Below, one piece after another: positions 7,285-28,901 of a stretch of DNA of 52,716 nt. A program made the translations under genes and the position numbers. Below the pieces are notes generated by a model, which was not told the origin of the DNA, made no database searches, and was given only the letters and a program-made list of their open reading frames with translations. The stretch lies in the sequence record MN158210.1. One strand, given 5' to 3'. The DNA comes from Escherichia phage BEK12A. The number at the start of each line of letters is the position of its first letter. The first letter of the stretch is position 1.

Positions 7285-7303
7285 GTTTAACAAAAAATGC
7301 TAT
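7285..7303 (-). promoter_or_regulatory. conserved 20-bp box, reverse orientation, abutting capsid gene leader
   Basis: GTTTAACAAAAAATGCTAT on the plus strand equals the box on the minus strand. Confidence 0.5.
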
Positions 7304-17348: not shown

Positions 17349-20300
17349 ATGGCTGAAAATATGATAACTGGCAGTAAGGGCGGAAGCAAAAAGCCATACG
17401 TGCCAAAAGAGATGGAAGATAACCTGATCTCGATAAACAAGATTAAAGTTTTGCTGGCTGTATCTGATGGCGAATGCGATCCAGATTTCACGTTGCGTGA
17501 TCTTTATCTTGATGATGTTCCGGTTATTGCCAGCGATGGCACTGTTAACTATGAGGGGGTAACGGCTGAATATAGACCAGGTACACAGACGCAAGATTAC
17601 ATCCAGGGGTTTACTGACACATCAAGCGAGGTGACAGTTTCGCGAGATATTACAGCAGACAATCCCTATATTATCTCTGTAACAAATAAAAATCTTTCTG
17701 CAATCAGAATCAAGATTCTGATGCCAGTTGGCATAAAACAGGAGGATAACGGCGATCTTGTTGGTGTAAGGGTTCAATATGCCGTAGATATGGCTGTTGA
17801 TGGCGGTTCTTATAACGAGGTTATGAGAGATGTAATTGATGGCAAGACAAGATCAGGATATGACCGCAGCAGAAGGATTGATCTTCCTAAGTTTGATGAG
17901 CGCGTTTTAATCAGGGTCAAGCGACTGACTCCAGACAGCACATCTTCAAAGGTGACTGATAAAATCAAACTGCAAAGTTACGCTGAGGTTGTGGATGCAA
18001 AATTCCGTTATCCTCTGACTGGCCTTGTATTCGTAGAATTTGACAGCGAATTGTTTCCTACGCAAATCCCTAACATTTCTATAAAAAAGAAATGGAAGAT
18101 TATTAATGTGCCAAGCAACTATGATCCAATATCTAGAGAATATCACGGGTCATGGGATGGGACTTTTAAAAAAGCGTGGTCAAATAATCCTGCTTGGGTT
18201 CTTTATGATCTGGTAACTAATCAGCGTTATGGACTTGACCAGCGAGAGTTAGGAATACAGATCGACAAGTGGAGCTTATACGAGGCTGGTGTTTACTGTG
18301 ATCAGAAAGTTCCAGACGGTAAGGGCGGTACAGAGCCTCGCTACCTATGCGATGTGGTGATCCAGAATCAGGTTGAGGCTTATCAGCTAATCCGTGACAT
18401 TTGCTCAATCTTTCGCGGAATGAGCTTTTGGAATGGAGAGAGCTTATCAATCGTAATTGATAAACCGCGCGATCCATCATACGTGTTTACTAATGAAAAC
18501 GTCATCAACGGTGATTTTCAGTACACAGCAGCAAGCGAAAAAAGCATGTACACGCAATGTAATGTGACGTTTGACGACGAACAAAACATGTATCAGCAGG
18601 ACGTAGAGGGGGTTTTTGATACTGAGGCGGCATTACGATTTGGATACAATCCAACAAGCATTACAGCGATCGGGTGTACACGCAGGAGCGAAGCGAATCG
18701 TCGCGGTCGGTGGGTTTTGAAAACAAACCTTAGAAGCACTACTGTAAACTTTGCTACCGGACTAGAGGGGATGATTCCATCCATAGGTGATGTGATTGCT
18801 ATCGCTGATAATTTTCAGAGCAGCAATCTAACGCTAAATCTTTCGGGCCGAGTAATGGAAGTTTCAGGCTTGCAAGTTTTCGTTCCGTTTAAGGTTGATG
18901 CGCGTCCTGGTGATTTTATTATCATCAACAAGCCGGACGGAAAGCCAGTTAAGCGAACGATCTCAAAGGTGAGCGCAGACGGAAAAACCATTGAGTTAAA
19001 TATTGGCTTTGGTTTTGATGTTAAGCCTGATACTGTTTTTGCGATTGACCGTACTGACCTTGCGTTGCAGCAATACGTTGTGACAACTATCAGCAAGGGT
19101 GATGACGAAAACGAGTTTACCTATTCAATCACGGCTGTAGAGTACGATCCGAACAAATACGACGAGATTGATTATGGAGTAAACATTGATGACAGGCCAA
19201 CTTCAATTGTTCAGCCTGACGTGATGGCAGCGCCTGAGAACGTGCAGATCTCTTCTTATTCTCGCGTCGTGCAGGGTGTAAGCGTTGAAACTATGGTTGT
19301 GTCGTGGGAAAAAGTGCCTTATGCATCGCTCTATGAAATGCAGTGGCGTAAAGGTGATGGAAACTGGCTGAATACACCACAGACCGCAAACAAAGAAATT
19401 GAGGTTGAAGGTATTTATTCAGGTAACTACCAAGTAAGGGTGAGATCTGTTTCTGCTTCCGGTTCTACGTCGCCGTGGTCAAAGATTGCAACCGCCACCC
19501 TGACAGGTAAAGTTGGCGAGCCAGGAGCGCCGATTAATCTTACAGCTTCTGATAATGAAGTTTTTGGCATTCGTGTCAAATGGGGTATGCCGGAAGGATC
19601 GGGCGATACGGCTTACATTGAGCTTCACCAATCGCCAGATGGGACGGTGGAAAACTCAAGTTTGCTTACGCTGATCCCGTATCCTCAATATGAGTATTGG
19701 CATAGCACGTTACCAGCGGGTCAAGTTGTATGGTATAGAATCCGTAGCGTTGACAGGATCGGCAACGTTTCCGGCTGGACTGACTTTGTTCGCGGCATGG
19801 CGTCAGATGATGTTGAATCTGTTTTAGGCGACATTCTGGACAAGATTTTTGATACCGAAGCGGGTCAAGAAATCAAAGAGAACGCCATAGACAGTGCAAA
19901 CAAAATCAAAGACCAGGCGCAATCAATCATCCAGAACGCATTGGCAAACGATGCCGATGTGAAGTGGACGCGAGTACAAAACGGAAAGCGTAAGGCTGAA
20001 TATGGTCATGCACTGGAGCTTATTGCTAACGAAACGGAGGCGCGAGTAACTCAAATCGAAGAGTTAAAGGCGTCAATTGATGAAGATATAGTTTCAAGTA
20101 TCAAAACCGTTCAGGAAGCGATTGCCAATGAATCAGAGACGCGAGCTACTCAAGTTCAGCAGCTTGATTCTAAATTTACGAAGGAAATAGACGGCGTAAA
20201 ACGAGATACGGCTGCAAGCATTGGCGAGGTAAGGCAAACCATTACCAATGAATCAGAAGCGCGTGCTCAAGCCGTTCAGCAGCTTGACGCTAAGTTCACG

Positions 20301-20927
20301 AAAGAGATAAACGACCTTGACGGAGTTATCAAAACAGAAGTCGAGGCTAACATCTCAGAAGTGAAACAGGCGATCGCCAATGAGACAGAGGCAAGGGTTC
20401 AGGCTGACCAGGCTTTAACAGCTAAATTCGGAGATGTTGAATCAGCACTAGCCGAAAAACTTGATTCGTGGGCTAACGTTAATTCTGTTGGCGCTAAGTA
20501 CTCTATGAAATTGGGCCTTACTTACAATGGTCAGAAGTACAGCGCAGGAATGATCATGCAGTTGTCGCAATCTTCTCAAGGCTTGATCTCGCAAATCTTG
20601 TTTGATGCTAACAGGTTCGCGATCATGACTAGCTCTACTGGCGGAACGTTTACTTTGCCTTTCGTTGTTGAAAACAACCAGGTTTTCATTAACAGCCTGC
20701 TAGTTAAAAACGGTTCAATTACAAATGCCATGATCGGTAATTATATTCAGTCGAATAACTTTGTTGCCAATCAGCAGGGTTGGAGGCTGGATAAAAACGG
20801 CAGATTTGAGAACTACGGAACTAGAGCGGGAGAAGGAGCTACAAAATTCACTAACGAAGGCTTAAAGGTGAAAGATGCAAATGGACGATTGAGAGTTGAG
20901 ATAGGGAGAATAACCGGAAGTTGGTAA
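17349..20927 (+). CDS. tail tip / central tail fiber protein (lambda gpJ-like host specificity protein)
   Basis: 1192 aa; follows M-L-K-I block; C-terminal coiled-coil repeats (NESEARA..VQQLD.KFTKEI repeated). Confidence 0.8.
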   Translation: MAENMITGSKGGSKKPYVPKEMEDNLISINKIKVLLAVSDGECDPDFTLRDLYLDDVPVIASDGTVNYEGVTAEYRPGTQTQDYIQGFTDTSSEVTVSRDITADNPYIISVTNKNLSAIRIKILMPVGIKQEDNGDLVGVRVQYAVDMAVDGGSYNEVMRDVIDGKTRSGYDRSRRIDLPKFDERVLIRVKRLTPDSTSSKVTDKIKLQSYAEVVDAKFRYPLTGLVFVEFDSELFPTQIPNISIKKKWKIINVPSNYDPISREYHGSWDGTFKKAWSNNPAWVLYDLVTNQRYGLDQRELGIQIDKWSLYEAGVYCDQKVPDGKGGTEPRYLCDVVIQNQVEAYQLIRDICSIFRGMSFWNGESLSIVIDKPRDPSYVFTNENVINGDFQYTAASEKSMYTQCNVTFDDEQNMYQQDVEGVFDTEAALRFGYNPTSITAIGCTRRSEANRRGRWVLKTNLRSTTVNFATGLEGMIPSIGDVIAIADNFQSSNLTLNLSGRVMEVSGLQVFVPFKVDARPGDFIIINKPDGKPVKRTISKVSADGKTIELNIGFGFDVKPDTVFAIDRTDLALQQYVVTTISKGDDENEFTYSITAVEYDPNKYDEIDYGVNIDDRPTSIVQPDVMAAPENVQISSYSRVVQGVSVETMVVSWEKVPYASLYEMQWRKGDGNWLNTPQTANKEIEVEGIYSGNYQVRVRSVSASGSTSPWSKIATATLTGKVGEPGAPINLTASDNEVFGIRVKWGMPEGSGDTAYIELHQSPDGTVENSSLLTLIPYPQYEYWHSTLPAGQVVWYRIRSVDRIGNVSGWTDFVRGMASDDVESVLGDILDKIFDTEAGQEIKENAIDSANKIKDQAQSIIQNALANDADVKWTRVQNGKRKAEYGHALELIANETEARVTQIEELKASIDEDIVSSIKTVQEAIANESETRATQVQQLDSKFTKEIDGVKRDTAASIGEVRQTITNESEARAQAVQQLDAKFTKEINDLDGVIKTEVEANISEVKQAIANETEARVQADQALTAKFGDVESALAEKLDSWANVNSVGAKYSMKLGLTYNGQKYSAGMIMQLSQSSQGLISQILFDANRFAIMTSSTGGTFTLPFVVENNQVFINSLLVKNGSITNAMIGNYIQSNNFVANQQGWRLDKNGRFENYGTRAGEGATKFTNEGLKVKDANGRLRVEIGRITGSW

Positions 20928-20930
20928 AAA

Positions 20931-20952
20931 AAGGGGGCATAGCCCCCTTTAA
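20931..20952. terminator. terminator between convergent genes
   Basis: AAGGGGGCATAGCCCCCTT flanked by A-run and T-run. Confidence 0.6.
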
Positions 20953-20954
20953 TT

Positions 20955-21569
20955 TTAATCATAGTGTGATGAATTTATAACCAAAACAGATGAAGCCGTG
21001 TAAATACCAACAGGACCAGAAGTTTGTGCAACCTGCCTAGATAAAGAATATACCCCGTTGCCATACGCGGCAGCTTGAGACTCAAATATCATGAATCCAC
21101 CTAAAGACGGATTACGCACAGAGTTTAAAGCTGTTAGTGACGGCATGATGGCGCAAGGGTATCCCAAGTTAACGTCAAAAGTGATCCCGCTTACAGATAC
21201 AAGTTTTGCATCTAAAGGCTTCATCTTTCCATGATAAACCATCTCACCATTAGCATTATAAAAAGCTATTCCGTGACTACCAGGAGGAGTAACCATATTG
21301 CTAAAAGCATAAACAAATACCTCACCTTGATTGTCTGACTTTTCTATCTTTATTGCGTGCTTCCCACCATTATTAAATTGAGTAAATGCTATGTATGATT
21401 TTGATGTTAACCTTACAAAAAAGAAGCACGGTATATTTATTGGTATAGAAGTATTAAAAACGGTTCCTGTTTTTGCTGATATTTTACCTTTATCTATAAG
21501 GTTAACAGGAGTGAAATCTGGACTTAACCACAATGATCCGTCTGGTTTTTTTATGCTCATCCCGTACAT
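20955..21569 (-). CDS. hypothetical protein, candidate receptor-binding protein
   Basis: about 204 aa (ORF-track start is TTG; first ATG at codon 5); last gene of lipoprotein-led leftward operon downstream of J. Confidence 0.4.
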   Translation of the reverse strand: MYGMSIKKPDGSLWLSPDFTPVNLIDKGKISAKTGTVFNTSIPINIPCFFFVRLTSKSYIAFTQFNNGGKHAIKIEKSDNQGEVFVYAFSNMVTPPGSHGIAFYNANGEMVYHGKMKPLDAKLVSVSGITFDVNLGYPCAIMPSLTALNSVRNPSLGGFMIFESQAAAYGNGVYSLSRQVAQTSGPVGIYTASSVLVINSSHYD

Positions 21570-21571
21570 TA

Positions 21572-21850
21572 TTACCCCCAAAAAGTATATATATATCTTG
21601 AGTCAGATCCAGAAAGTCCGCTCCATGTAACAGTATCACCGCTTACACCTAAACTTGGAGCGCCTGGATCGCCTCCTCGCCACGAATTCATTCCAACATA
21701 TATTGCTTTCAAAGACTTACCTGGAGGCCTGTTTGAGTAGGTCTTACTGCCGGATGATTGAGTAAATTTATCCAAGAAAAAAACTGGAGTTAAAAGGCCA
21801 GTAACATTTCTACCTTGCTCATCATATATTGCATACCCATATTCAGCCAT
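21572..21850 (-). CDS. hypothetical Gly/Ser-rich protein
   Basis: 92 aa, RBS GAGGTG; 3' end contains (TA)5 tract; coupled to lipoprotein gene stop. Confidence 0.4.
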   Translation of the reverse strand: MAEYGYAIYDEQGRNVTGLLTPVFFLDKFTQSSGSKTYSNRPPGKSLKAIYVGMNSWRGGDPGAPSLGVSGDTVTWSGLSGSDSRYIYTFWG

Positions 21851-22118
21851 TTTTGCACCTCAAATCAATGAATTTTCTTTCATCTTGCCAACGGTTGATA
21901 AATTTAACTTCTTTATTGTCAACGCTCAACCTGTATTGCTTTTGGCTGAATCTGTTTTCGCGGACCGCATTAATTTTAACTTCATGGAATCCGTTAACAG
22001 GGAATGTTTTAACGTTAAATTTTGCCGTGCAATCGATCTCCTTGAAGTTGCCAGTAGGCGAAGAAGAACATCCGGTCAGGGCGGCTACGGTGGCGATAAC
22101 TGCGATTAATTTTTTCAT
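21843..22118 (-). CDS. lipoprotein, candidate superinfection-exclusion (Cor/Llp-like) protein
   Basis: MKKLIAVIATVAALTGCSSS signal peptide with lipobox; RBS AAGGAG; first gene of leftward operon next to tail tip gene. Confidence 0.5.
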   Translation of the reverse strand: MKKLIAVIATVAALTGCSSSPTGNFKEIDCTAKFNVKTFPVNGFHEVKINAVRENRFSQKQYRLSVDNKEVKFINRWQDERKFIDLRCKNG

Positions 22119-22173
22119 CTTCAATACTCCTTAGTTGTTGTTGGCTGTAACTATACACGATCCGGCAAGCCGA

Positions 22174-22192
22174 GTTTAGCAAAAAGTGCTAT
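22174..22192 (-). promoter_or_regulatory. conserved 20-bp box upstream of leftward lipoprotein operon (variant GCTAAAC)
   Basis: minus strand reads ATAGCACTTTTTGCTAAAC, then 18 bp, then TATAGT. Confidence 0.5.
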
Positions 22193-22254
22193 TTGTTATT
22201 TTTTGTTTTCCGGTGTTATCGGATTTAAGACGGCGTAAATTTAGCGCAAATCTT

Positions 22255-22460
22255 AGCCAACATAAGAACAATAAATAATCAATAAAATAGATATATACAT
22301 ATAAAATCAATAGTTTATTTATTTATGTATGTATATTTGTTTTTTCTTGTTATCTGTGTTTCTTGTGGTTTTGGTTGTTTGTGGTGATTTTTCTTTCTGA
22401 GTATCTGTATGTGCCATCATTCATGTGTATGTATATAATCCGGCGTATCTGAGAGAACAA
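22255..22460. repeat. AT-rich noncoding repeat region A (homologous to 43890-44030)
   Basis: TATTTATTTATGTATGTATATTTG..TTGTTATCTGTG..TTGTGG..TTTGG..GTATCTGTATGTG shared with region B. Confidence 0.6.
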
Positions 22461-22561
22461 GGGAACAAGAAAAATAACACATATTAATCATTAACTTACT
22501 CGTCAAATTTGTTTTATTGCCATCTGAGAACGTTTAGAAAACAGAAAAAACAAAACAACTA

Positions 22562-22589
22562 TTGACTAAATCAACCAAATGGCTACAAT
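22562..22589 (+). promoter_or_regulatory. sigma-70 promoter (TTGACT-16-TACAAT) for recombination operon
   Basis: near-consensus hexamers about 30 nt upstream of the 22620 start. Confidence 0.6.
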
Positions 22590-22619
22590 GCACACACAAA
22601 GCAACGAGGAGCATTAAAG

Positions 22620-23675
22620 ATGAGTGATTTTAACGCCTATACTAGCGAAGAAATGAGTAACGAGCTTTATCACGATCCAGAAGCGTGGACGGCTGAATAT
22701 GTCAGCGGTTCCAGCCTGGCGGAGATTTACAGCACTTGCCCGGCGTACTGGAAGTACAAGCCTCGCCAGGAAACTAAGGCACTTGTTTTCGGTACGCAGT
22801 CGCATACCAATTTTGAAAGCAAGGAGTTATTCGAAAAAACATATCGCCGCGCACCGTCGCAGGATGATTTTAAAGATCTGATCACAAGTCAAACGGCGTT
22901 AGCCTCAAAGCTGAAATCTTTTGGCCTGAAAGGTACAACGGGTAAGCAATATCCAGAATTGCTGGAAATGCTGTACAAGTGCGGTGAGGATCTCAATGTA
23001 TGGTGGCTTATCGAAATGATGGCAGAATGCCAGGCCGCAGCGGACGGCGTGCAGTTAATCGACGCGAAAGATTATGATGCCTGTGTAGCGATGCGGCGCG
23101 TACTTGAGGCAATACCTGAGCATAATGCTTGCATGAATAGCCCAACCGCGCAGCGTGAAATGTCAATATTCGGGATCATCAATGGCGTAAAAGTTAAAGT
23201 GCGTCTTGATCACGTTGACGTAAACAAGGATGTAAAGGCCACAATCATTAACGGTTACGACGAAAAAGGCCGACCGATTTATGAAGAAGTCATCTATCCA
23301 GAAGCTGTGATTATCACTGACTATAAAACAACGGTTAGCGCAAATCCGGTTGACTTCCAGCGCCTGGCTTACAATCACGGCTATTATCTCAAAATGGCTT
23401 TGCAGCATGATTTATTTAAAAAGGCTTATCCAGACGAGGAAAGGCCAGTAATTGTGAGATTGCTTGCTCAAGAGAAGAAAGAGCCTTACTTGCCGCTCGC
23501 ATTCCGCATGAACATTGAGCAATTGAAGATTGGGCGTATCCAGTACATGAGCGTGATCAATAAGTTCAATGTTTGCCAGAAGTTAGATGAATGGCCTTCG
23601 TATGCAAACGGGCAGCCAGAAATTGATCTTGATACTCCTGATTGGGTCCGCGCCCAATTCAGGCAGTATCTATGA
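22620..23675 (+). CDS. PD-(D/E)XK family exonuclease (recombination exonuclease)
   Basis: RLDHVD ... VIITDYKT motif arrangement typical of RecB/lambda-Exo-like nucleases; followed by annealing protein and SSB. Confidence 0.55.
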   Translation: MSDFNAYTSEEMSNELYHDPEAWTAEYVSGSSLAEIYSTCPAYWKYKPRQETKALVFGTQSHTNFESKELFEKTYRRAPSQDDFKDLITSQTALASKLKSFGLKGTTGKQYPELLEMLYKCGEDLNVWWLIEMMAECQAAADGVQLIDAKDYDACVAMRRVLEAIPEHNACMNSPTAQREMSIFGIINGVKVKVRLDHVDVNKDVKATIINGYDEKGRPIYEEVIYPEAVIITDYKTTVSANPVDFQRLAYNHGYYLKMALQHDLFKKAYPDEERPVIVRLLAQEKKEPYLPLAFRMNIEQLKIGRIQYMSVINKFNVCQKLDEWPSYANGQPEIDLDTPDWVRAQFRQYL

Positions 23676-24903: not shown

Positions 24904-24936
24904 CAAAAAGCCCCGCATGTGCGGGGCATTTTTTTA
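24904..24936. terminator. bidirectional rho-independent terminator
   Basis: GCCCCGCATGTGCGGGGC flanked by A-run and T-run between convergent ssb and tail fiber genes. Confidence 0.7.
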
Positions 24937-27333
24937 GTTAAGAGTAGTAGGATTGTTGATTAGCTTTGACAGCAACTCTTTTAACTCTGCAACCTCCTTT
25001 TCAAGTTTTGATATTCTTTCTTTGTTATCAACATCACGAGCGCGAAGCGCTTTTATTGCAGCCAGTCCATCCATCAGCAGCGGATTAGTGTCAAGAGTCA
25101 TAATTCCAGATACAGAATCGCTATGAACATACTCCCTATCTATCATCATGGCATCTTGAGCTATTATTCCGCGTCTTGCACTCCTTTCGTTGCTATCAAA
25201 TGTATACCTAAATAATTTGAAGTTCATCCTTGATATATTATCTAGCGCGCATTCAACATTAAGATTTCCTTTAACATCCTTGAATCTAATATCAGAGGTT
25301 CCAGACTTCTGTAATGTGTTCCAAGGCTTAGTTGTTTTGGCTACCTTCGGATCTCCTGTATCGTTATATCTAGTGTATGCATTCCCAGCCGTGTCAATCC
25401 AGAATTGAAATATCCTGTATTTATCATAGGATGATTGAAAACCACCTCCATTTGCAGGAGCCCACTTAGTACCGCTTAGATTATCACTTATAAACTGACA
25501 TCCGGCGTTTGTTATATCATTAGCAAGGCTTTTTACTTGACCAACTCCATATTTTGATGCTACAGGATGCCAAACCCAACCACTCCACTTCCACGAACCA
25601 GAAGCCTTGTCATAACTCCTTGAATAGTAAGATGGATCGTCAATAGGGTAATAATATTGATTTGCATGTTCTACCCCGTTCGCAGTAGAGCTTGTAACAA
25701 GAAGAACGCCAGCTTTTTGTACTGGATAGTTATTTTGAGGAGTTGCGTTAGCATTTGCACCCTGATAGTAATAACCAAAATTACTATAACCATATAAGTC
25801 ATTTAGGTTTCCGCTTAATGCACCCCTTTGCTGCCTCATTAAATTTAGGTTGTCTCTTGCCGACTCTGCTGATTTTGAACCAGTACCCCCCTTGCTTATT
25901 GGTAAAGCTATATCAGATTTCGATGTAGAATCCCACATTCCCCAATCGCCATTATTTTTTACGAAAATTCGCTTTGTTCCATCAGCACTTGAAACGACGG
26001 TCTCACCGGATGCATCAGTTCCCTGCACCAATCTATCTACGCCAAGATTCACCTTTGTAGTTTTCACATCTGACACTGAAATAGAATTTCCGATGAAATT
26101 ACCGCTAATGCTGAAATTTCCATCAATGTCAAGACCTGCATACTTGTTAACAGAGCTGTCAGCATTTGACAAATGAAGTGTTAACCATTCCTTATTGTCT
26201 CCGCGTATTTCACCATAAAACCTATATCCAAGCCTTTTTTGACCAGATGTATTATTCAGATACCCTGACAATATGCCAGCCGCAGCTTGCGGTGAGTCGC
26301 TTTTCTTAACAAGATTAATGTTTTGAAATTGAGGGGTATTATCATCTCCAAGCCCTATCCTTGTTCTGTATGTGTCAGTTGCCTCCTGAGAATAAAATGC
26401 AGACCATGCTGACCATACTTGTCTTGTTGGATCGTACCATCTCGAATAAAAGTAAGCCTGAGAATTGTAAGGCATGTAAATTTGATGGCAGGCATCGTTA
26501 CCGTTAGCCCTGTTTGAGATAACTTGCAAAGATCCGGCCAATTTTGCTGGATACCCCCTTTCAGGAGTAGCTAAAGCACTATCACCTTGAAAGTAAAGAC
26601 CAGCTTGCTCACCCTTAAGATTATCTATGTTTGTCTCATCAAGATTAACCCATGATTGATAGTATGCGCTTAAATTCTTTCGTGAGACAACCTTATCAGC
26701 AAGATCATTAAGATTTTGAGACTTAACAAGAAAATTACCAGGTTGAATGCTTTCTGCATACTGCTTAGCTTTATCTTCGCTTGCTTTTGCTGCATCCTGA
26801 CTACCCTTAGCGGCTGTTGCAGAATTTGCCGACGCATCTTGACTGGCCTTTGCAGCATTCTTGAATTGCTCGGCGTCATTTCTTGCATTAACAGCATTTG
26901 TTTCGCTTATTTTTGCAGCTTCCGCGCTTTGTTTTGCTGATTCAGCGCCTTGCTTCACCTGATTTACAAGATCTTTCAACCCATCAAGATCGAAATCTCT
27001 AAAAAATTCAAGCGCGTCAGCGATCTCTGTTTCCTTGCTTTGATAGTAACGCAGCGTTTCCGCTACGTCCTGCGCCAGCCCGTCAACCGTTAACGAGTCA
27101 TGAAGCAAGATCAGGTAATTTGTCTTCTGAACTACCGCGCCGCCAGTAGTAATTGCGCGAATGCTTGTATCGCTAATCACTTCTGTAATCACAGCAGCTT
27201 GCAAAGGTTGAGTAAGAAAGAAAATAGTTGCGCCTGGGCGAATCAAGGTTAATTGCTCACGCCATTTTGTGTCGTAACCAGTTACATAACCTTGCGCGTC
27301 CATAGACGCTTGGCCTTGTCTGTAAATTGCCAT
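24934..27333 (-). CDS. side tail fiber with C-terminal intramolecular chaperone (peptidase S74-like) domain
   Basis: 799 aa; C-terminus [21 protein letters not shown]...[12 protein letters not shown] resembles auto-cleaving chaperone domain of T5 L-shaped fiber / endosialidase; RBS AGGAGG. Confidence 0.75.
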
Positions 27334-27350: not shown

Positions 27351-27370
27351 ATAGCACTTTTTGCTAATGA
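27351..27370 (+). promoter_or_regulatory. conserved 20-bp box (variant), opposite orientation to adjacent tail fiber gene
   Basis: ATAGCACTTTTTGCTAATGA immediately upstream of the fiber RBS on the other strand. Confidence 0.4.
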
Positions 27371-27398
27371 CAATGCAGATAATAGCATTTTCAAATGC

Positions 27399-27422
27399 AA
27401 AAAAAAACCCCGCATAAGCGGG
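27399..27422 (-). terminator. rho-independent terminator of primase operon
   Basis: minus strand CCCCGCTTATGCGGGG followed by TTTTTTTT. Confidence 0.65.
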
Positions 27423-27439
27423 GCAATACTAGCGGAGTT

Positions 27440-28369
27440 TTATAGTAGTGATTCAGGCTTATAGAGTTTTCTTTCTACGCCCTGTTTAAAATTATCGTTA
27501 ACAGGCATCATTATGTCAAGACCTCTTTCCTCTGCTGCGATTATCACATCACGATCATCTTTCCGGCAGACTACGCGCATTCTTCTTTCTCCTTTATATC
27601 TATGCGCAACCATTTCAAGATTTGAAGGAGTAAAGCAGGCCCACACCTCTTGACCAGTTGACAAATGAACATGCTGGGAATCAACCCAATCAAGGCACAA
27701 ATAGATCGTCTTATCTGTGCTACCTGTTTTAACAACAGATCCGCGCGTGTAGTCGCGAGCTAAAAACCAATCCTTTCCATCCTCATCAATGAAAAGCACG
27801 TTACACATTTCATCATCCAGCCCGTCATCATGCACCAGGTGACAAGGTAGCGCGTGAATGTATCGACCATCCTTGACGCCGCAATCATAATAACAATCTT
27901 CCGGCGGATATATCCCCTCATAAACGCTTAAGGGTGTGCGATCGAATTTTAATGTTTTTGCCATCACTTTTTCGCAGCATTCATGACTTGCCTGTTTCCC
28001 GAACGAGTAACCAGAAGAACGCGAAGCGCGCTTGTTTGCTCTGATCCTGTAATCCTGCGGCACTTTTCCGAGGAAGCGGCCCAAAATGTTGATGGCCTCG
28101 CTGTAAGGTTCGCCAGTTAATTTCATTAACCAACCGATCCCCGTGTCGTTACCGCATACGTTGCAGATCGCGCCGCCATCGCCCTCTTCATTTAGCTTAT
28201 CAGTCCATCTAAAACGATCCTTACCGCCGCAGTGTGGGCAAGGCTGATGCTTTTTGTTGAAAACATCGCTATGCAGTCCGCAAATGCTTTGTAGTGCTTC
28301 ACGCCATAACCCCTTCATATATGGCAAAACGTCTTCTTTCTGATAGGTCATAAAGTTTTCAGTATTCAT
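27440..28369 (-). CDS. DNA primase (zinc-ribbon primase domain)
   Basis: CPHCGGKDRFRWTD...CNVCGN zinc-binding motif typical of primase-helicase Zn ribbons; start taken at MNTENF downstream of a hairpin; start uncertain. Confidence 0.6.
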   Translation of the reverse strand: MNTENFMTYQKEDVLPYMKGLWREALQSICGLHSDVFNKKHQPCPHCGGKDRFRWTDKLNEEGDGGAICNVCGNDTGIGWLMKLTGEPYSEAINILGRFLGKVPQDYRIRANKRASRSSGYSFGKQASHECCEKVMAKTLKFDRTPLSVYEGIYPPEDCYYDCGVKDGRYIHALPCHLVHDDGLDDEMCNVLFIDEDGKDWFLARDYTRGSVVKTGSTDKTIYLCLDWVDSQHVHLSTGQEVWACFTPSNLEMVAHRYKGERRMRVVCRKDDRDVIIAAEERGLDIMMPVNDNFKQGVERKLYKPESLL

Positions 28370-28381
28370 GGCAAACCCCAA

Positions 28382-28417
28382 TAAAAAAGCCCAGCAAATA
28401 TTATCATTTCGCTGGGC
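28382..28417 (-). terminator. terminator / attenuator hairpin between HTH gene and primase
   Basis: minus strand GCCCAGC-15 nt loop-GCTGGGC followed by TTTTTTAT. Confidence 0.4.
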
Positions 28418-28424
28418 CTTATCA

Positions 28425-28901
28425 TTAGCTATTCGTGCTGTTATCACCTTTGTAGAATCGTCCGCCTGGTTCGTAGTCTGAATTTTTGACTACGCGCAAC
28501 ATTTCGTATTTGTCGCAACGGGTAGTAAGAGGCTTGCCGTTAGAATCAAACCGCAGATCTGGACGACAAAACGAGGCGCGGTATCCTTTGCATCCATTAT
28601 ATTTGTAGTCGTTATGCACCTTTTGTGCTCCAGCGGCTGAAATCATACCACGCTTTCGCCATTGGTTAACAACTTGCTGAGATACGCGCAGACGTCGAGC
28701 CATAGCAGGAACGCCGCCGTAATACTCGATCAGAATGTCAAGGCGAGATTTCAGGCTTGCTTTTACCTCATCTCGCAGGATAAGAAATCCGGTTCGGTGT
28801 TTTCGTGGCTTTTTGTCTTTACCTCGTCGCGTTCCGTTGTTACCGTTAATAGTGCGCTTGTCGATCTCACCCGTAGACACTGCAATTCGTGCATCTTTCA
28901 T
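28425..28901 (-). CDS. HTH DNA-binding protein (Cro/YdaS-like helix-turn-helix)
   Basis: YGGVPAMARRLRVSQQVVNQWRKRG motif; RBS GAGGTG; first gene of leftward operon. Confidence 0.5.
   Translation of the reverse strand: MKDARIAVSTGEIDKRTINGNNGTRRGKDKKPRKHRTGFLILRDEVKASLKSRLDILIEYYGGVPAMARRLRVSQQVVNQWRKRGMISAAGAQKVHNDYKYNGCKGYRASFCRPDLRFDSNGKPLTTRCDKYEMLRVVKNSDYEPGGRFYKGDNSTNS

Follow-up and report, generated by a model that had tools for sequence, protein, structure and literature searches.

A lipoprotein-led leftward operon beside the tail-tip gene of Escherichia phage BEK12A as a probable BtuB-type receptor-binding and superinfection-exclusion module

We analyzed a 52,716-nucleotide stretch of DNA from Escherichia phage BEK12A (MN158210.1), hereafter the window, whose sequence is a 100% match to Escherichia phage BEK26 (52716 bp). 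The phage belongs to the Tempevirinae of the Drexlerviridae (T1-like phages of E. coli). Beside its J-like tail-tip gene lies a leftward operon of three genes, encoding in order a lipoprotein of 91 aa and two proteins of 92 and 204 aa. The features used in this study are as follows.

22192..22180, minus strand: conserved promoter box ATAGCACTTTTTG, then CTAAAC (22179..22174), 18 nt and TATAGT
22155..22150, minus strand: −10-like hexamer TATAGT, preceded by TG; read from the sequence, with the box spacing of the other copies
22118..21843, minus strand: 91-aa lipoprotein gene; N-terminus MKKLIAVIATVAALTG followed by C; lipobox LTGC; Ser at +2
21850..21572, minus strand: ORF of the 92-aa virion protein (phrog_557); its ATG overlaps the lipoprotein stop codon (ATGGCTGA)
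21569..20955, minus strand: ORF of the 204-aa candidate receptor-binding protein (RBP; phrog_425), BtuB type; junction with the 92-aa ORF, TAATAATG
17349..20927, plus strand: J-like central tail fibre/tail-tip gene, 1192 aa; Pfam FNIII-A_GpJ, Phage-tail_3 and Phage_Tail_Tip; 67% identical to T1 gp33
20709..20924, plus strand: last 72 codons of J, a probable docking module for both small proteins; 71–73% identical to T1 and to an otherwise divergent J-like protein
20930..20950, bidirectional: terminator hairpin common to J and the leftward operon; nine-pair stem AAAGGGGGC/GCCCCCTTT
24934..27333, minus strand: lateral tail fibre gene, a second host-range determinant

The sequence-only reading had described a box-driven leftward operon led by a 91-aa lipoprotein with the lipobox LTGC and converging on the end of J, and all of these elements were found where it placed them. 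The lipoprotein gene is preceded by a Shine-Dalgarno sequence, AAGGAG, 8 nt upstream of the start codon. The mechanical list of ORFs offers a longer TTG start at 21581 for the 204-aa ORF; we took the ATG at 21569 as the start because homologues keep an invariant M1-Y2-G3 there. J and the 204-aa ORF converge with a gap of 27 nt, which holds the hairpin, and on the minus strand a T-run follows the hairpin. The dN/dS values against FritzSarasin were 0.14 for the lipoprotein, 0.04 for the 92-aa protein and 0.10 for the 204-aa protein, and all three genes are under purifying selection. The Rfam search of the window returned no match.

The promoter box occurs 17 times in the window with one geometry (box, TTAAAA(C), approximately 18 nt and a TATAAT-like hexamer), and nearly all copies precede non-structural genes. 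The T1 genome contains 15 copies, and FritzSarasin keeps the box upstream of the same gene. A generic sigma-70 scan found no minus-strand promoter at the locus and did not flag TATAGT; thus, the promoter was called from the repeated box. The placement of virion genes behind a promoter of the non-structural type is unusual and counts against the explanation that we prefer below.

The lipoprotein carries a Sec/SPII signal peptide (MKKLIAVIATVAALTG, cut before CSSS), the lipobox LTG with Cys17, and a non-Asp residue at +2, as in lipoproteins of the outer-membrane type; a weak match to Pfam LPAM_1 was also obtained. The whole protein matched phrog_1119, the PHROG of Cor, with E = 6e-8, the mature part alone gave no match, and BLASTP against T1 Cor aligned only residues 1–32. 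We considered the Cor match as an artefact of the signal peptide and dropped this idea after the family-level evidence. The lipoprotein family comprises 46 clusters, in all of which Cys17, Cys30 and Cys88 are invariant, and 33 of the 46 members match phrog_1119 (best, 6e-16). Alignment of the mature lipoprotein with Cor by hhalign ran end to end and matched both Cys residues (E = 8e-4, with a probability of only 24%). The protein therefore appears to be distantly linked to Cor, and it is not a close homologue of Cor or Llp. A Cor-based search for such loci in viral contigs recovered copies of the T1-like and Stx types only, which did not suffice to build a good Cor profile. The structure model of the lipoprotein is a small beta-barrel (pLDDT 75).

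The two downstream proteins matched phrog_557 (92 aa, E = 6e-21) and phrog_425 (204 aa, E = 2e-50) over their full length, and the T1 proteins match the same two PHROGs. In 80 of the 80 related loci, the phrog_557 gene directly precedes the phrog_425 gene, and the pair adjoins the 3′ end of the J-like gene in the same order at every locus examined; the 92-aa protein is an obligate partner of the candidate RBP. Both proteins had been called Gly-rich, which is correct for the 92-aa protein (15.2% Gly) but not for the 204-aa protein (9.3%, compared to 7.3% in J). Neither has a predicted signal peptide or transmembrane segment, a Pfam search with the two gave no match, and PDB sequence searches with all three proteins of the operon yielded nothing meaningful.

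Published mass spectrometry of purified vB_EcoS-95 virions detected vBEcoS95_84 and vBEcoS95_85, the latter with 55% sequence coverage, and did not detect the lipoprotein vBEcoS95_86. The 204-aa protein is identical to vBEcoS95_84 at 203 of 204 residues and the 92-aa protein to vBEcoS95_85 at 92 of 92. On the basis of the virion proteomics of this 99–100% identical relative, both small proteins are structural, the opposite of the outcome (non-structural downstream proteins) that the sequence-only reading had named as evidence against itself.

The structure model of the 204-aa protein is confident (pLDDT 87) and shares its fold with a solved RBP from the same type of locus, RBP-Oeko, so the search for an RBP-like fold that had been proposed gave a positive result for this protein. 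A partial and weak match to phrog_1265 (E = 0.0099) maps to the same region, and by sequence the protein did not join the phrog_1265/RBP-Oeko family (hhalign, E = 0.24; BLASTP, no match). Two further ideas were rejected. A correspondence between the 92-aa protein and the N-terminal region of the single-chain RBP of Oekolampad found no support in hhalign, and domain paralogy of the 92-aa protein with the two halves of the 204-aa protein gave only short, weak signals (pairwise E = 8.6e-4 to 0.36, probability ≤ 24%). The 92-aa protein and these halves share an N-terminal motif, YG.xI.D..G, which we mention as a motif noticed and not as a result.

Drexlerviridae and related small siphoviruses carry an RBP locus for receptor specificity downstream of gpJ, and in two papers receptor specificity is tied to the allele found there (PMC8594841; 10.64898/2026.04.02.716166). 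FritzSarasin/Bas04, JK16 and Kalemo carry the same three genes downstream of J. Gene content, order, orientation, promoter box and terminator are shared with these phages, and the loci differ in sequence divergence only. The Bas04 and JK16 proteins are 85–94% identical to those of this phage; for Bas04, identity is approximately 93% for the lipoprotein, approximately 93% for the 92-aa protein and 86% for the 204-aa protein, whose differences are scattered and not concentrated in the variable C-terminal half. Bas04 and JK16 require BtuB, and Kalemo is likewise among the BtuB-needing phages. The RB-TnSeq hits for Bas04 were btuB, sdaC and dcrB; the published AlphaFold3 model of BtuB with the Bas04 RBP reached an ipTM of only 0.47. 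The lipoprotein family is also present in Bas06 (a 56% identical member), SaltyDalty and PTXU06. Bas06 was shown to need BtuB, and for SaltyDalty BtuB is a computational prediction. The family thus occurs in phages of different genera shown to use BtuB (Bas04, JK16 and Bas06), and relatives with the lipoprotein use BtuB, not FhuA, the receptor inactivated by Cor.

These comparisons suggest that the likely receptor of this phage is BtuB and not the FhuA of T1. The divergence of its RBP from the Bas04 protein is 14%, so that its own receptor is inferred. The two virion proteins most likely recognise BtuB, the 204-aa protein being the candidate RBP. The lipoprotein is a candidate superinfection-exclusion factor that would probably block BtuB after infection, by analogy with Llp-FhuA and Rtp45-LptD, and its position in the operon is that of the proven exclusion lipoprotein Rtp45/SE-Oeko. 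The proposal that this is a receptor-binding and exclusion locus is supported by its position, the BtuB-dependent relatives, the RBP fold, the virion proteins and the Rtp45/SE-Oeko position; it can be regarded as a BtuB-type module of a kind already described in close relatives. The locus had also been put forward as the most likely host-range determinant, which fits the terminal receptor, with the lateral tail fibre gene as a second determinant.

The last 72 residues of J are 73% identical to T1 and 71% identical to L066, an 881-aa J-like protein that is otherwise only 25–30% identical, and the motif V.D.NG.LRV.IGR also ends the J-C-terminal-like protein of Stx phages. The phages sharing this terminal segment or motif (T1, the phage with L066 and the Stx phages) all carry the phrog_557/phrog_425 pair; in these sequences, the pair and the terminal 72 residues of J go together. 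Conservation across BtuB-type J, FhuA-type J (T1) and an otherwise unrelated J fits a docking surface and not a determinant of specificity.

The layout of an exclusion lipoprotein followed by an RBP and converging on J is shared with the LptD-type locus of Oekolampad/Rtp, which encodes RBP-Oeko (PDB 9RPT) and the lipoprotein Rtp45 (PDB 9RPS) (PMC12685063). That locus differs in its receptor, LptDE, in having a single 321-aa RBP in place of the 92-aa and 204-aa pair, and in the PHROG of its lipoprotein (phrog_4281 versus phrog_1119 here); sequence comparison with it gave no significant similarity. The FhuA-type cor cassette of T1, found also in N15, HK022, phi80 and ES18, consists of ST32 (phrog_557), ST31 (phrog_425) and Cor (PMC13164509); the N15 counterparts of the phrog_425/phrog_557 pair are gp23/gp22. 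T1 shares the PHROG families of the pair, the Cys topology of the lipoprotein and J (67% overall, 73% over the last 72 residues), but its pair is only approximately 22% identical and runs in the same direction as J within the late operon, cor is set apart on the opposite strand and lacks a box, and the receptor is FhuA. T5 (pb5/Llp, FhuA) and BF23 (BtuB) follow the same logic, an RBP plus a lipoprotein that faces the periplasm and inactivates the cognate TonB-dependent transporter. In short-tailed Stx phages, gp27/gp28 of Stx2-86 and H0142/H0143 of Sp5 correspond to the pair (48% identical) and follow a J-C-terminal-like protein that ends in the same motif, whereas the tails are of the podovirus type and no lipoprotein of the same family is adjacent. 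The known receptor of Stx phages, BamA, is attributed to another protein, and Sp5 ORF72/73, homologues of the pair by gene position, fall outside the set of genes required for infectivity on K-12.

We consider a BtuB-type terminal-receptor module of a Tempevirinae phage the best explanation of the whole locus, with a probability of roughly 0.8. In this model, the operon would be expressed early, as a single transcript from the box-type promoter that also serves non-structural genes to the hairpin common with J. The lipoprotein would be exported and lipidated at Cys17, its Ser at +2 would direct it to the inner leaflet of the outer membrane, and a Cys30-Cys88 disulfide would lock it. It would most likely bind the periplasmic side of BtuB and make the receptor unusable from outside, so that the infected cell would be protected from superinfection and progeny would not be wasted on debris. 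The 92-aa and 204-aa proteins carry no export signal and become part of the virion. The conserved N-terminal part of the 204-aa protein, probably with the 92-aa protein, may attach to the conserved final ~70 residues in the J trimer, and its more variable C-terminal half would contact BtuB directly.

Other assignments of the virion proteins were weighed against this model. That the two small proteins are membrane-associated exclusion helpers and not virion RBPs is suggested by their PHROG names ("outer membrane protein" as well as "membrane associated protein"), by the KanT1 paper, which assumes a Sie-related role for the pair, by the operon shared with the lipoprotein behind a promoter of the non-structural type, and by the apparent non-essentiality of the Sp5 homologues. 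We regard it as very improbable: proteins without a signal peptide or transmembrane segment are present in purified virions of a 99–100% identical relative, where the lipoprotein was not detected, the 204-aa protein has the fold of a solved RBP, and the T1 and Stx pairs sit in the tail operon with no adjacent lipoprotein of the same family. Scarcely more probable is that the J C-terminus binds the receptor, as in lambda and TolC-type Drexlerviridae, with the small proteins as decorations or assembly factors that play no role in specificity. The Phage_Tail_Tip domain of J, the specificity-associated k-mers in the GpJ tip (10.64898/2026.04.02.716166), and the Sp5 data, in which the pair is dispensable and the J-C-terminal-like ORF71 is essential, agree with it; the J end, 73% identical between the BtuB type and FhuA-type T1 and 71% identical to an otherwise unrelated J, does not, nor does the cryo-EM structure that shows direct contact of the RBP from the analogous locus with its receptor.

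The identity of BtuB as receptor and as target can be questioned separately. A different receptor despite the BtuB-type cassette would be in keeping with an RBP only 86% identical to that of Bas04 and with the occurrence of the 204-aa family at 42–48% identity in Stx and Queuovirinae-like phages. This is improbable, as the differences from Bas04 are scattered rather than grouped within the variable C-terminal half, the lipoproteins of the two phages share 93% identity, and the more distant Bas06, with a 56% identical lipoprotein, still uses BtuB. Somewhat easier to entertain, though still unlikely, is a lipoprotein target other than BtuB, such as a later step (SdaC/DcrB-dependent DNA entry) or another envelope function: Bas04 needs sdaC and dcrB besides btuB, so other periplasmic targets exist, and AlphaFold-type predictions of such complexes are unreliable. 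The presence of the lipoprotein family in BtuB users of different genera (Bas04, JK16 and Bas06), an operon position matching that of Rtp45/SE-Oeko, which bind the cognate receptor, and the apparent distant relationship to Cor argue for BtuB as the target.

A broader and rather doubtful idea is that the 92-aa and 204-aa proteins are two subunits of one receptor-binding unit. With the final ~70 residues of J, this unit would make up a portable module swapped between unrelated tails. Those tails would be the ones of T1-like and Queuovirinae-like siphoviruses, 45-kb giant-J phages, SSU5-like plasmid-prophages and short-tailed Stx phages. Because the 48% identity of the Stx pair to the BtuB-type pair exceeds the 30% identity used as a receptor-family cut-off in a preprint (10.64898/2026.04.02.716166), short-tailed Stx phages could carry an unrecognised second module for receptor binding, used conditionally and directed at BtuB or a similar TonB-dependent transporter. 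The same idea would have the BtuB-, FhuA- and LptD-type RBPs share one ancestral fold, whereas the preprint calls them "unrelated" (10.64898/2026.04.02.716166).

The shared fold of phrog_425 (BtuB/FhuA type) and the LptD-binding RBP adds to the literature an argument that RBP families so far called unrelated have a common origin, and existing virion proteomics argue against both the database names of the pair and the suggestion of an exclusion helper. With the candidate exclusion lipoprotein of the BtuB type, one could well examine if the "reverse allostery" of Llp-FhuA extends to other TonB-dependent transporters. The locus decides which outer-membrane protein is used for irreversible adsorption and hence allows prediction of receptor use and of cross-resistance and exclusion between phages. 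For this phage, it predicts a need for BtuB, probably together with SdaC and DcrB, and an exclusion lipoprotein directed against BtuB.

The sequence-only reading had proposed a box-driven leftward operon, headed by a 91-aa lipoprotein gene, that converges on the J-like tail-tip gene (J; 1192 aa, plus strand, 17349-20927). Both points were borne out: three tightly packed minus-strand genes follow the box, and a hairpin is shared with J.

Features of the operon
22192..22180, minus strand: promoter box ATAGCACTTTTTG, then CTAAAC, 18 nt, and TATAGT
22118..21843, minus strand: lipoprotein gene, encoding MKKLIAVIATVAALTG/CSSS; Shine-Dalgarno AAGGAG upstream
21850..21572, minus strand: 92-aa gene, ATG overlapping the lipoprotein stop codon
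21569..20955, minus strand: 204-aa gene; junction with the 92-aa gene, TAATAATG
20930-20950, between J and the 204-aa gene: GC-rich hairpin, T-run on the minus strand

The stop codon of the 204-aa gene lies 27 nt from that of J at 20927. The dN/dS values against FritzSarasin (BASEL Bas04) were 0.14, 0.04, and 0.10 for the lipoprotein, 92-aa, and 204-aa genes, respectively, indicating purifying selection on all three. The earlier description of two Gly-rich proteins held for the 92-aa protein (15% Gly) and failed for the 204-aa protein (9% Gly).

The box occurs in 17 copies in the window, equally spaced from a -10-like hexamer, with the consensus ATAGCACTTTTTG, TTAAAAC, ~18 nt, and a TATAAT-like sequence. 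Nearly all copies precede non-structural genes (27-51 kb).

Box copies in the window
Minus strand: 7303, 11065, 22192, 36173, 38335, 39327, 41809, 42315, 43619
Plus strand: 27351, 28913, 31402, 32913, 44946, 45940, 47797, 50590

The T1 genome has 15 copies, so the box looks family-wide. FritzSarasin retains it before the lipoprotein gene. A generic promoter scan did not flag the box at 22192..22180. We infer the promoter timing of the operon from where the box occurs. The copies at 7303 and 11065 have one mismatch each and lie antisense within the structural gene block. The plus-strand copy at 27351 (region 27351-27430) reads rightward, beginning a short way upstream of the point where the lateral tail fibre gene starts (minus-strand ATG near 27333, Shine-Dalgarno AGGAGG). 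It leads directly into a terminator hairpin and into the 3′ part of the minus-strand ORF 27440..28447, which comparison with FritzSarasin marks as probably the primase gene. Transcription from this box could yield an antisense RNA or a short one; the same arrangement is present in FritzSarasin (locus L001, 13115).

Escherichia phage BEK26 (MN158216.1) matched the 204-aa and 91-aa proteins of the window at 100%. Over the 1.8-kb region, identity was 96-98% with BEK7, JLBYU10, vB_EcoS-95, and tonijn and ~87% with FritzSarasin, tonnikala, JK16, and Kalemo, all of which are Drexlerviridae, Tempevirinae. The neighbouring genes (tail assembly protein I, J, PDDEXK exonuclease, Erf, SSB, and lateral tail fibre) match the T1-like map. 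J contains the Pfam domains FNIII-A_GpJ, Phage-tail_3, and Phage_Tail_Tip, and the lateral tail fibre contains a Peptidase_S74 chaperone domain. The 500-bp intergenic stretch between the lipoprotein and exonuclease genes (22119-22625) was 95% identical to FritzSarasin and Kalemo, whereas the neighbouring 92-aa and 204-aa genes were just 84% identical. It contains an A/C-rich tract and ATACATA repeats, three tiny ORFs are annotated there in Kalemo, and an Rfam search of it gave no match; the conservation suggests a regulatory region beside a recombining cassette. This E. coli T1-like cassette is also present in at least 11 'Campylobacter phage' records (host Campylobacter jejuni; e.g. MG065657 C4 and MG065649 A143; those listed are 49,946 bp), with the 204-aa protein 62% and the lipoprotein 53% identical to those of the window. 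These records look like Drexlerviridae coliphages, and their Campylobacter host label may be wrong.

Virion proteomics bears on the function of the two small proteins, which have no signal peptide and no hydrophobic segment of membrane-spanning length. Mass spectrometry of purified vB_EcoS-95 virions (Topka et al. 2019) listed vB_EcoS-95_0083 (132 kDa, J), _0084 (22.0 kDa, 2 peptides), and _0085 (10.0 kDa, 3 peptides, 55% coverage). In the GenBank record, _0083 is J, _0084 the 204-aa gene, _0085 the 92-aa gene, and _86 the lipoprotein gene, whose product was absent from this virion list. The window proteins are identical to those of vB_EcoS-95 at 203/204 and 92/92 residues. On the proteomics of this near-identical phage, both small proteins are structural. 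The same detection means that the 92-aa protein cannot be purely a chaperone, and it argues strongly against the pair assisting exclusion in the membrane.

The lipoprotein is predicted to reside in the outer membrane because it has a lipobox and Ser at +2; under the E. coli Lol sorting rule, a non-Asp +2 residue directs a lipoprotein there. In a library of 1.8 billion proteins, its family formed 46 clusters at 50% identity. Member lengths span 80-118 aa, and three cysteines are invariant: the lipidation site, a second ~13 residues on, and a third close to the C-terminus. T1 Cor and Stx Cor share this cysteine topology. The whole lipoprotein matched phrog_1119 (E=6e-8), as did 33 of the 46 family members (best E=6e-16). 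The mature part alone did not match phrog_1119, and BLASTP against T1 Cor aligned the signal peptide region alone. A mature-part profile aligned end to end with mature Cor, matching both cysteines (E=8e-4 pairwise, probability 24%). From this mixed evidence we conclude that the lipoprotein probably branches distantly within the Cor group and is no close homologue. Three phages with a measured receptor carry the family (Bas04, JK16, and Bas06), and each uses BtuB; further carriers are SaltyDalty (BtuB assignment computational) and PTXU06. By analogy with Llp-FhuA and Rtp45-LptD, it would act in exclusion against the cognate receptor.

The 204-aa protein and T1 ST31 both fall in phrog_425 (E=2e-50 for the former). 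The AlphaFold2 model of the 204-aa protein (18 homologues) was all-beta and confident, with pLDDT 87 and pTM 0.82; residues 1-20 were disordered in it, yet conservation within the family peaks there. Conserved across the alignment are the N-terminal ~120 residues and the final ten, and residues ~125-195 occur in clade-specific versions. Such a pattern is usual for a receptor-binding protein (RBP), in which the attachment part is conserved and the binding part varies. As in the window, Oekolampad has J on the plus strand and a minus-strand exclusion lipoprotein gene, then the RBP gene, converging on J. For the Oekolampad/Rtp type, cryo-EM demonstrated that the RBP binds its receptor directly and that the related lipoprotein Rtp45 acts in exclusion (PMC12685063).

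We compared gene order at 80 related loci taken from viral contigs. Each has the phrog_557 gene (92-aa type) directly preceding the phrog_425 gene, and in each this pair adjoins the 3′ end of a gene for a J-like protein. Four arrangements were found.

Arrangements of the pair
Tempevirinae type: converging on J, lipoprotein first
45-kb contigs whose J proteins span 1700-1800 aa: J, lipoprotein, 557, 425, all co-directional
Stx podoviruses: co-directional, without lipoprotein, following a 422-aa homologue of the J C-terminal quarter
Queuovirinae-like (JenP1 and BRET among tblastn hits): converging on an 881-aa J-like protein

The T1 pair runs in the direction of J, with cor by itself on the opposite strand; the window pair is therefore inverted and fused into the lipoprotein operon. 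Over its last 72 residues, the window J is 73% identical to that of T1 and 71% to the 881-aa protein, which elsewhere shares just 25-30% with the window J, and the terminal motif V.D.NG.LRV.IGR is retained in the Stx J-C-terminal-like protein too. The pair is ~22% identical to T1 ST31/ST32. Thus, phages of the BtuB and FhuA types have the J C-terminus in common and differ in the pair. On this reading, docking would take place at the J end, and the pair would confer specificity.

Most short-tailed Stx phages carry a pair 48% identical to that of the window directly after the J-C-terminal-like protein, as in Stx2-86 (L004, 4431-6618) and Sp5/VT2-Sakai (L005, 3434-5618). The pair also occurs in ~100-kb SSU5/Cyrano-like elements, Queuovirinae-like JenP1/BRET, and 45-kb giant-J contigs (loci L013, L066, L081). 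The lipoprotein family was absent beside Stx-type and Queuovirinae-type pairs. Nine Sp5 genes are essential for infectivity on K-12, including the J-C-terminal-like ORF71 and not the next two genes, which by position and gene numbering would be the pair. J residues ~880-1000 form a coiled-coil of imperfect repeats (…NETEARVTQIEELKA…, NESETRATQVQQLDSKFTKEI, NESEARAQAVQQLDAKFTKEI…) of variable length among relatives (J = 1141, 1192, 1209 aa); there, identity to FritzSarasin falls to 45%, with a 51-residue gap. A beta-hairpin-like motif, [YWH]G-x-x-[IF]-x-[DN]-x-x-G-x-x-[VL], starts every locus protein (92-aa, 204-aa, T1 ST31/ST32, and the N-terminus of RBP-Oeko, the solved LptD-binding RBP of Oekolampad; L097). 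It recurs at residues 98-118 of the 204-aa protein, and a similar form ends J (residues ~1170-1185, LKVKDANGRLRVEIG). Profile comparisons of the motif were weak; it may be a common hairpin pattern only, or could mark contacts chaining the locus proteins together.

The allele at the gpJ-downstream locus tracks the terminal receptor (FhuA, BtuB, LptD, or YncD), and an exclusion factor is usually encoded there too (PMC8594841; preprint 10.64898/2026.04.02.716166). The cassette of the window is also that of Bas04, JK16, and Kalemo, which are recorded as using BtuB. It is therefore the BtuB allele of this known locus type; by extension from these relatives, the receptor of the window phage itself would be BtuB. 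The RB-TnSeq hits of Bas04 were btuB, sdaC, and dcrB, and its published AlphaFold3 BtuB-RBP model had an ipTM of 0.47. Bas04 requires sdaC and dcrB as well as btuB, not tonB (preprint supplement), probably as a DNA-entry requirement of the phage group; this dependence means that an exclusion protein could have other targets. A 2026 KanT1 paper described a T1 'cor cassette' (Cor, phrog_557, and phrog_425), homologous to the window locus, and noted a Cor-like protein in BtuB-using Tempevirinae. The proposal of a receptor-binding and exclusion locus was supported; the window locus is one more example of a type that had been described before. Added here are a fold link to a solved RBP, existing proteomics that makes both small proteins structural, and a modular link to the J end.
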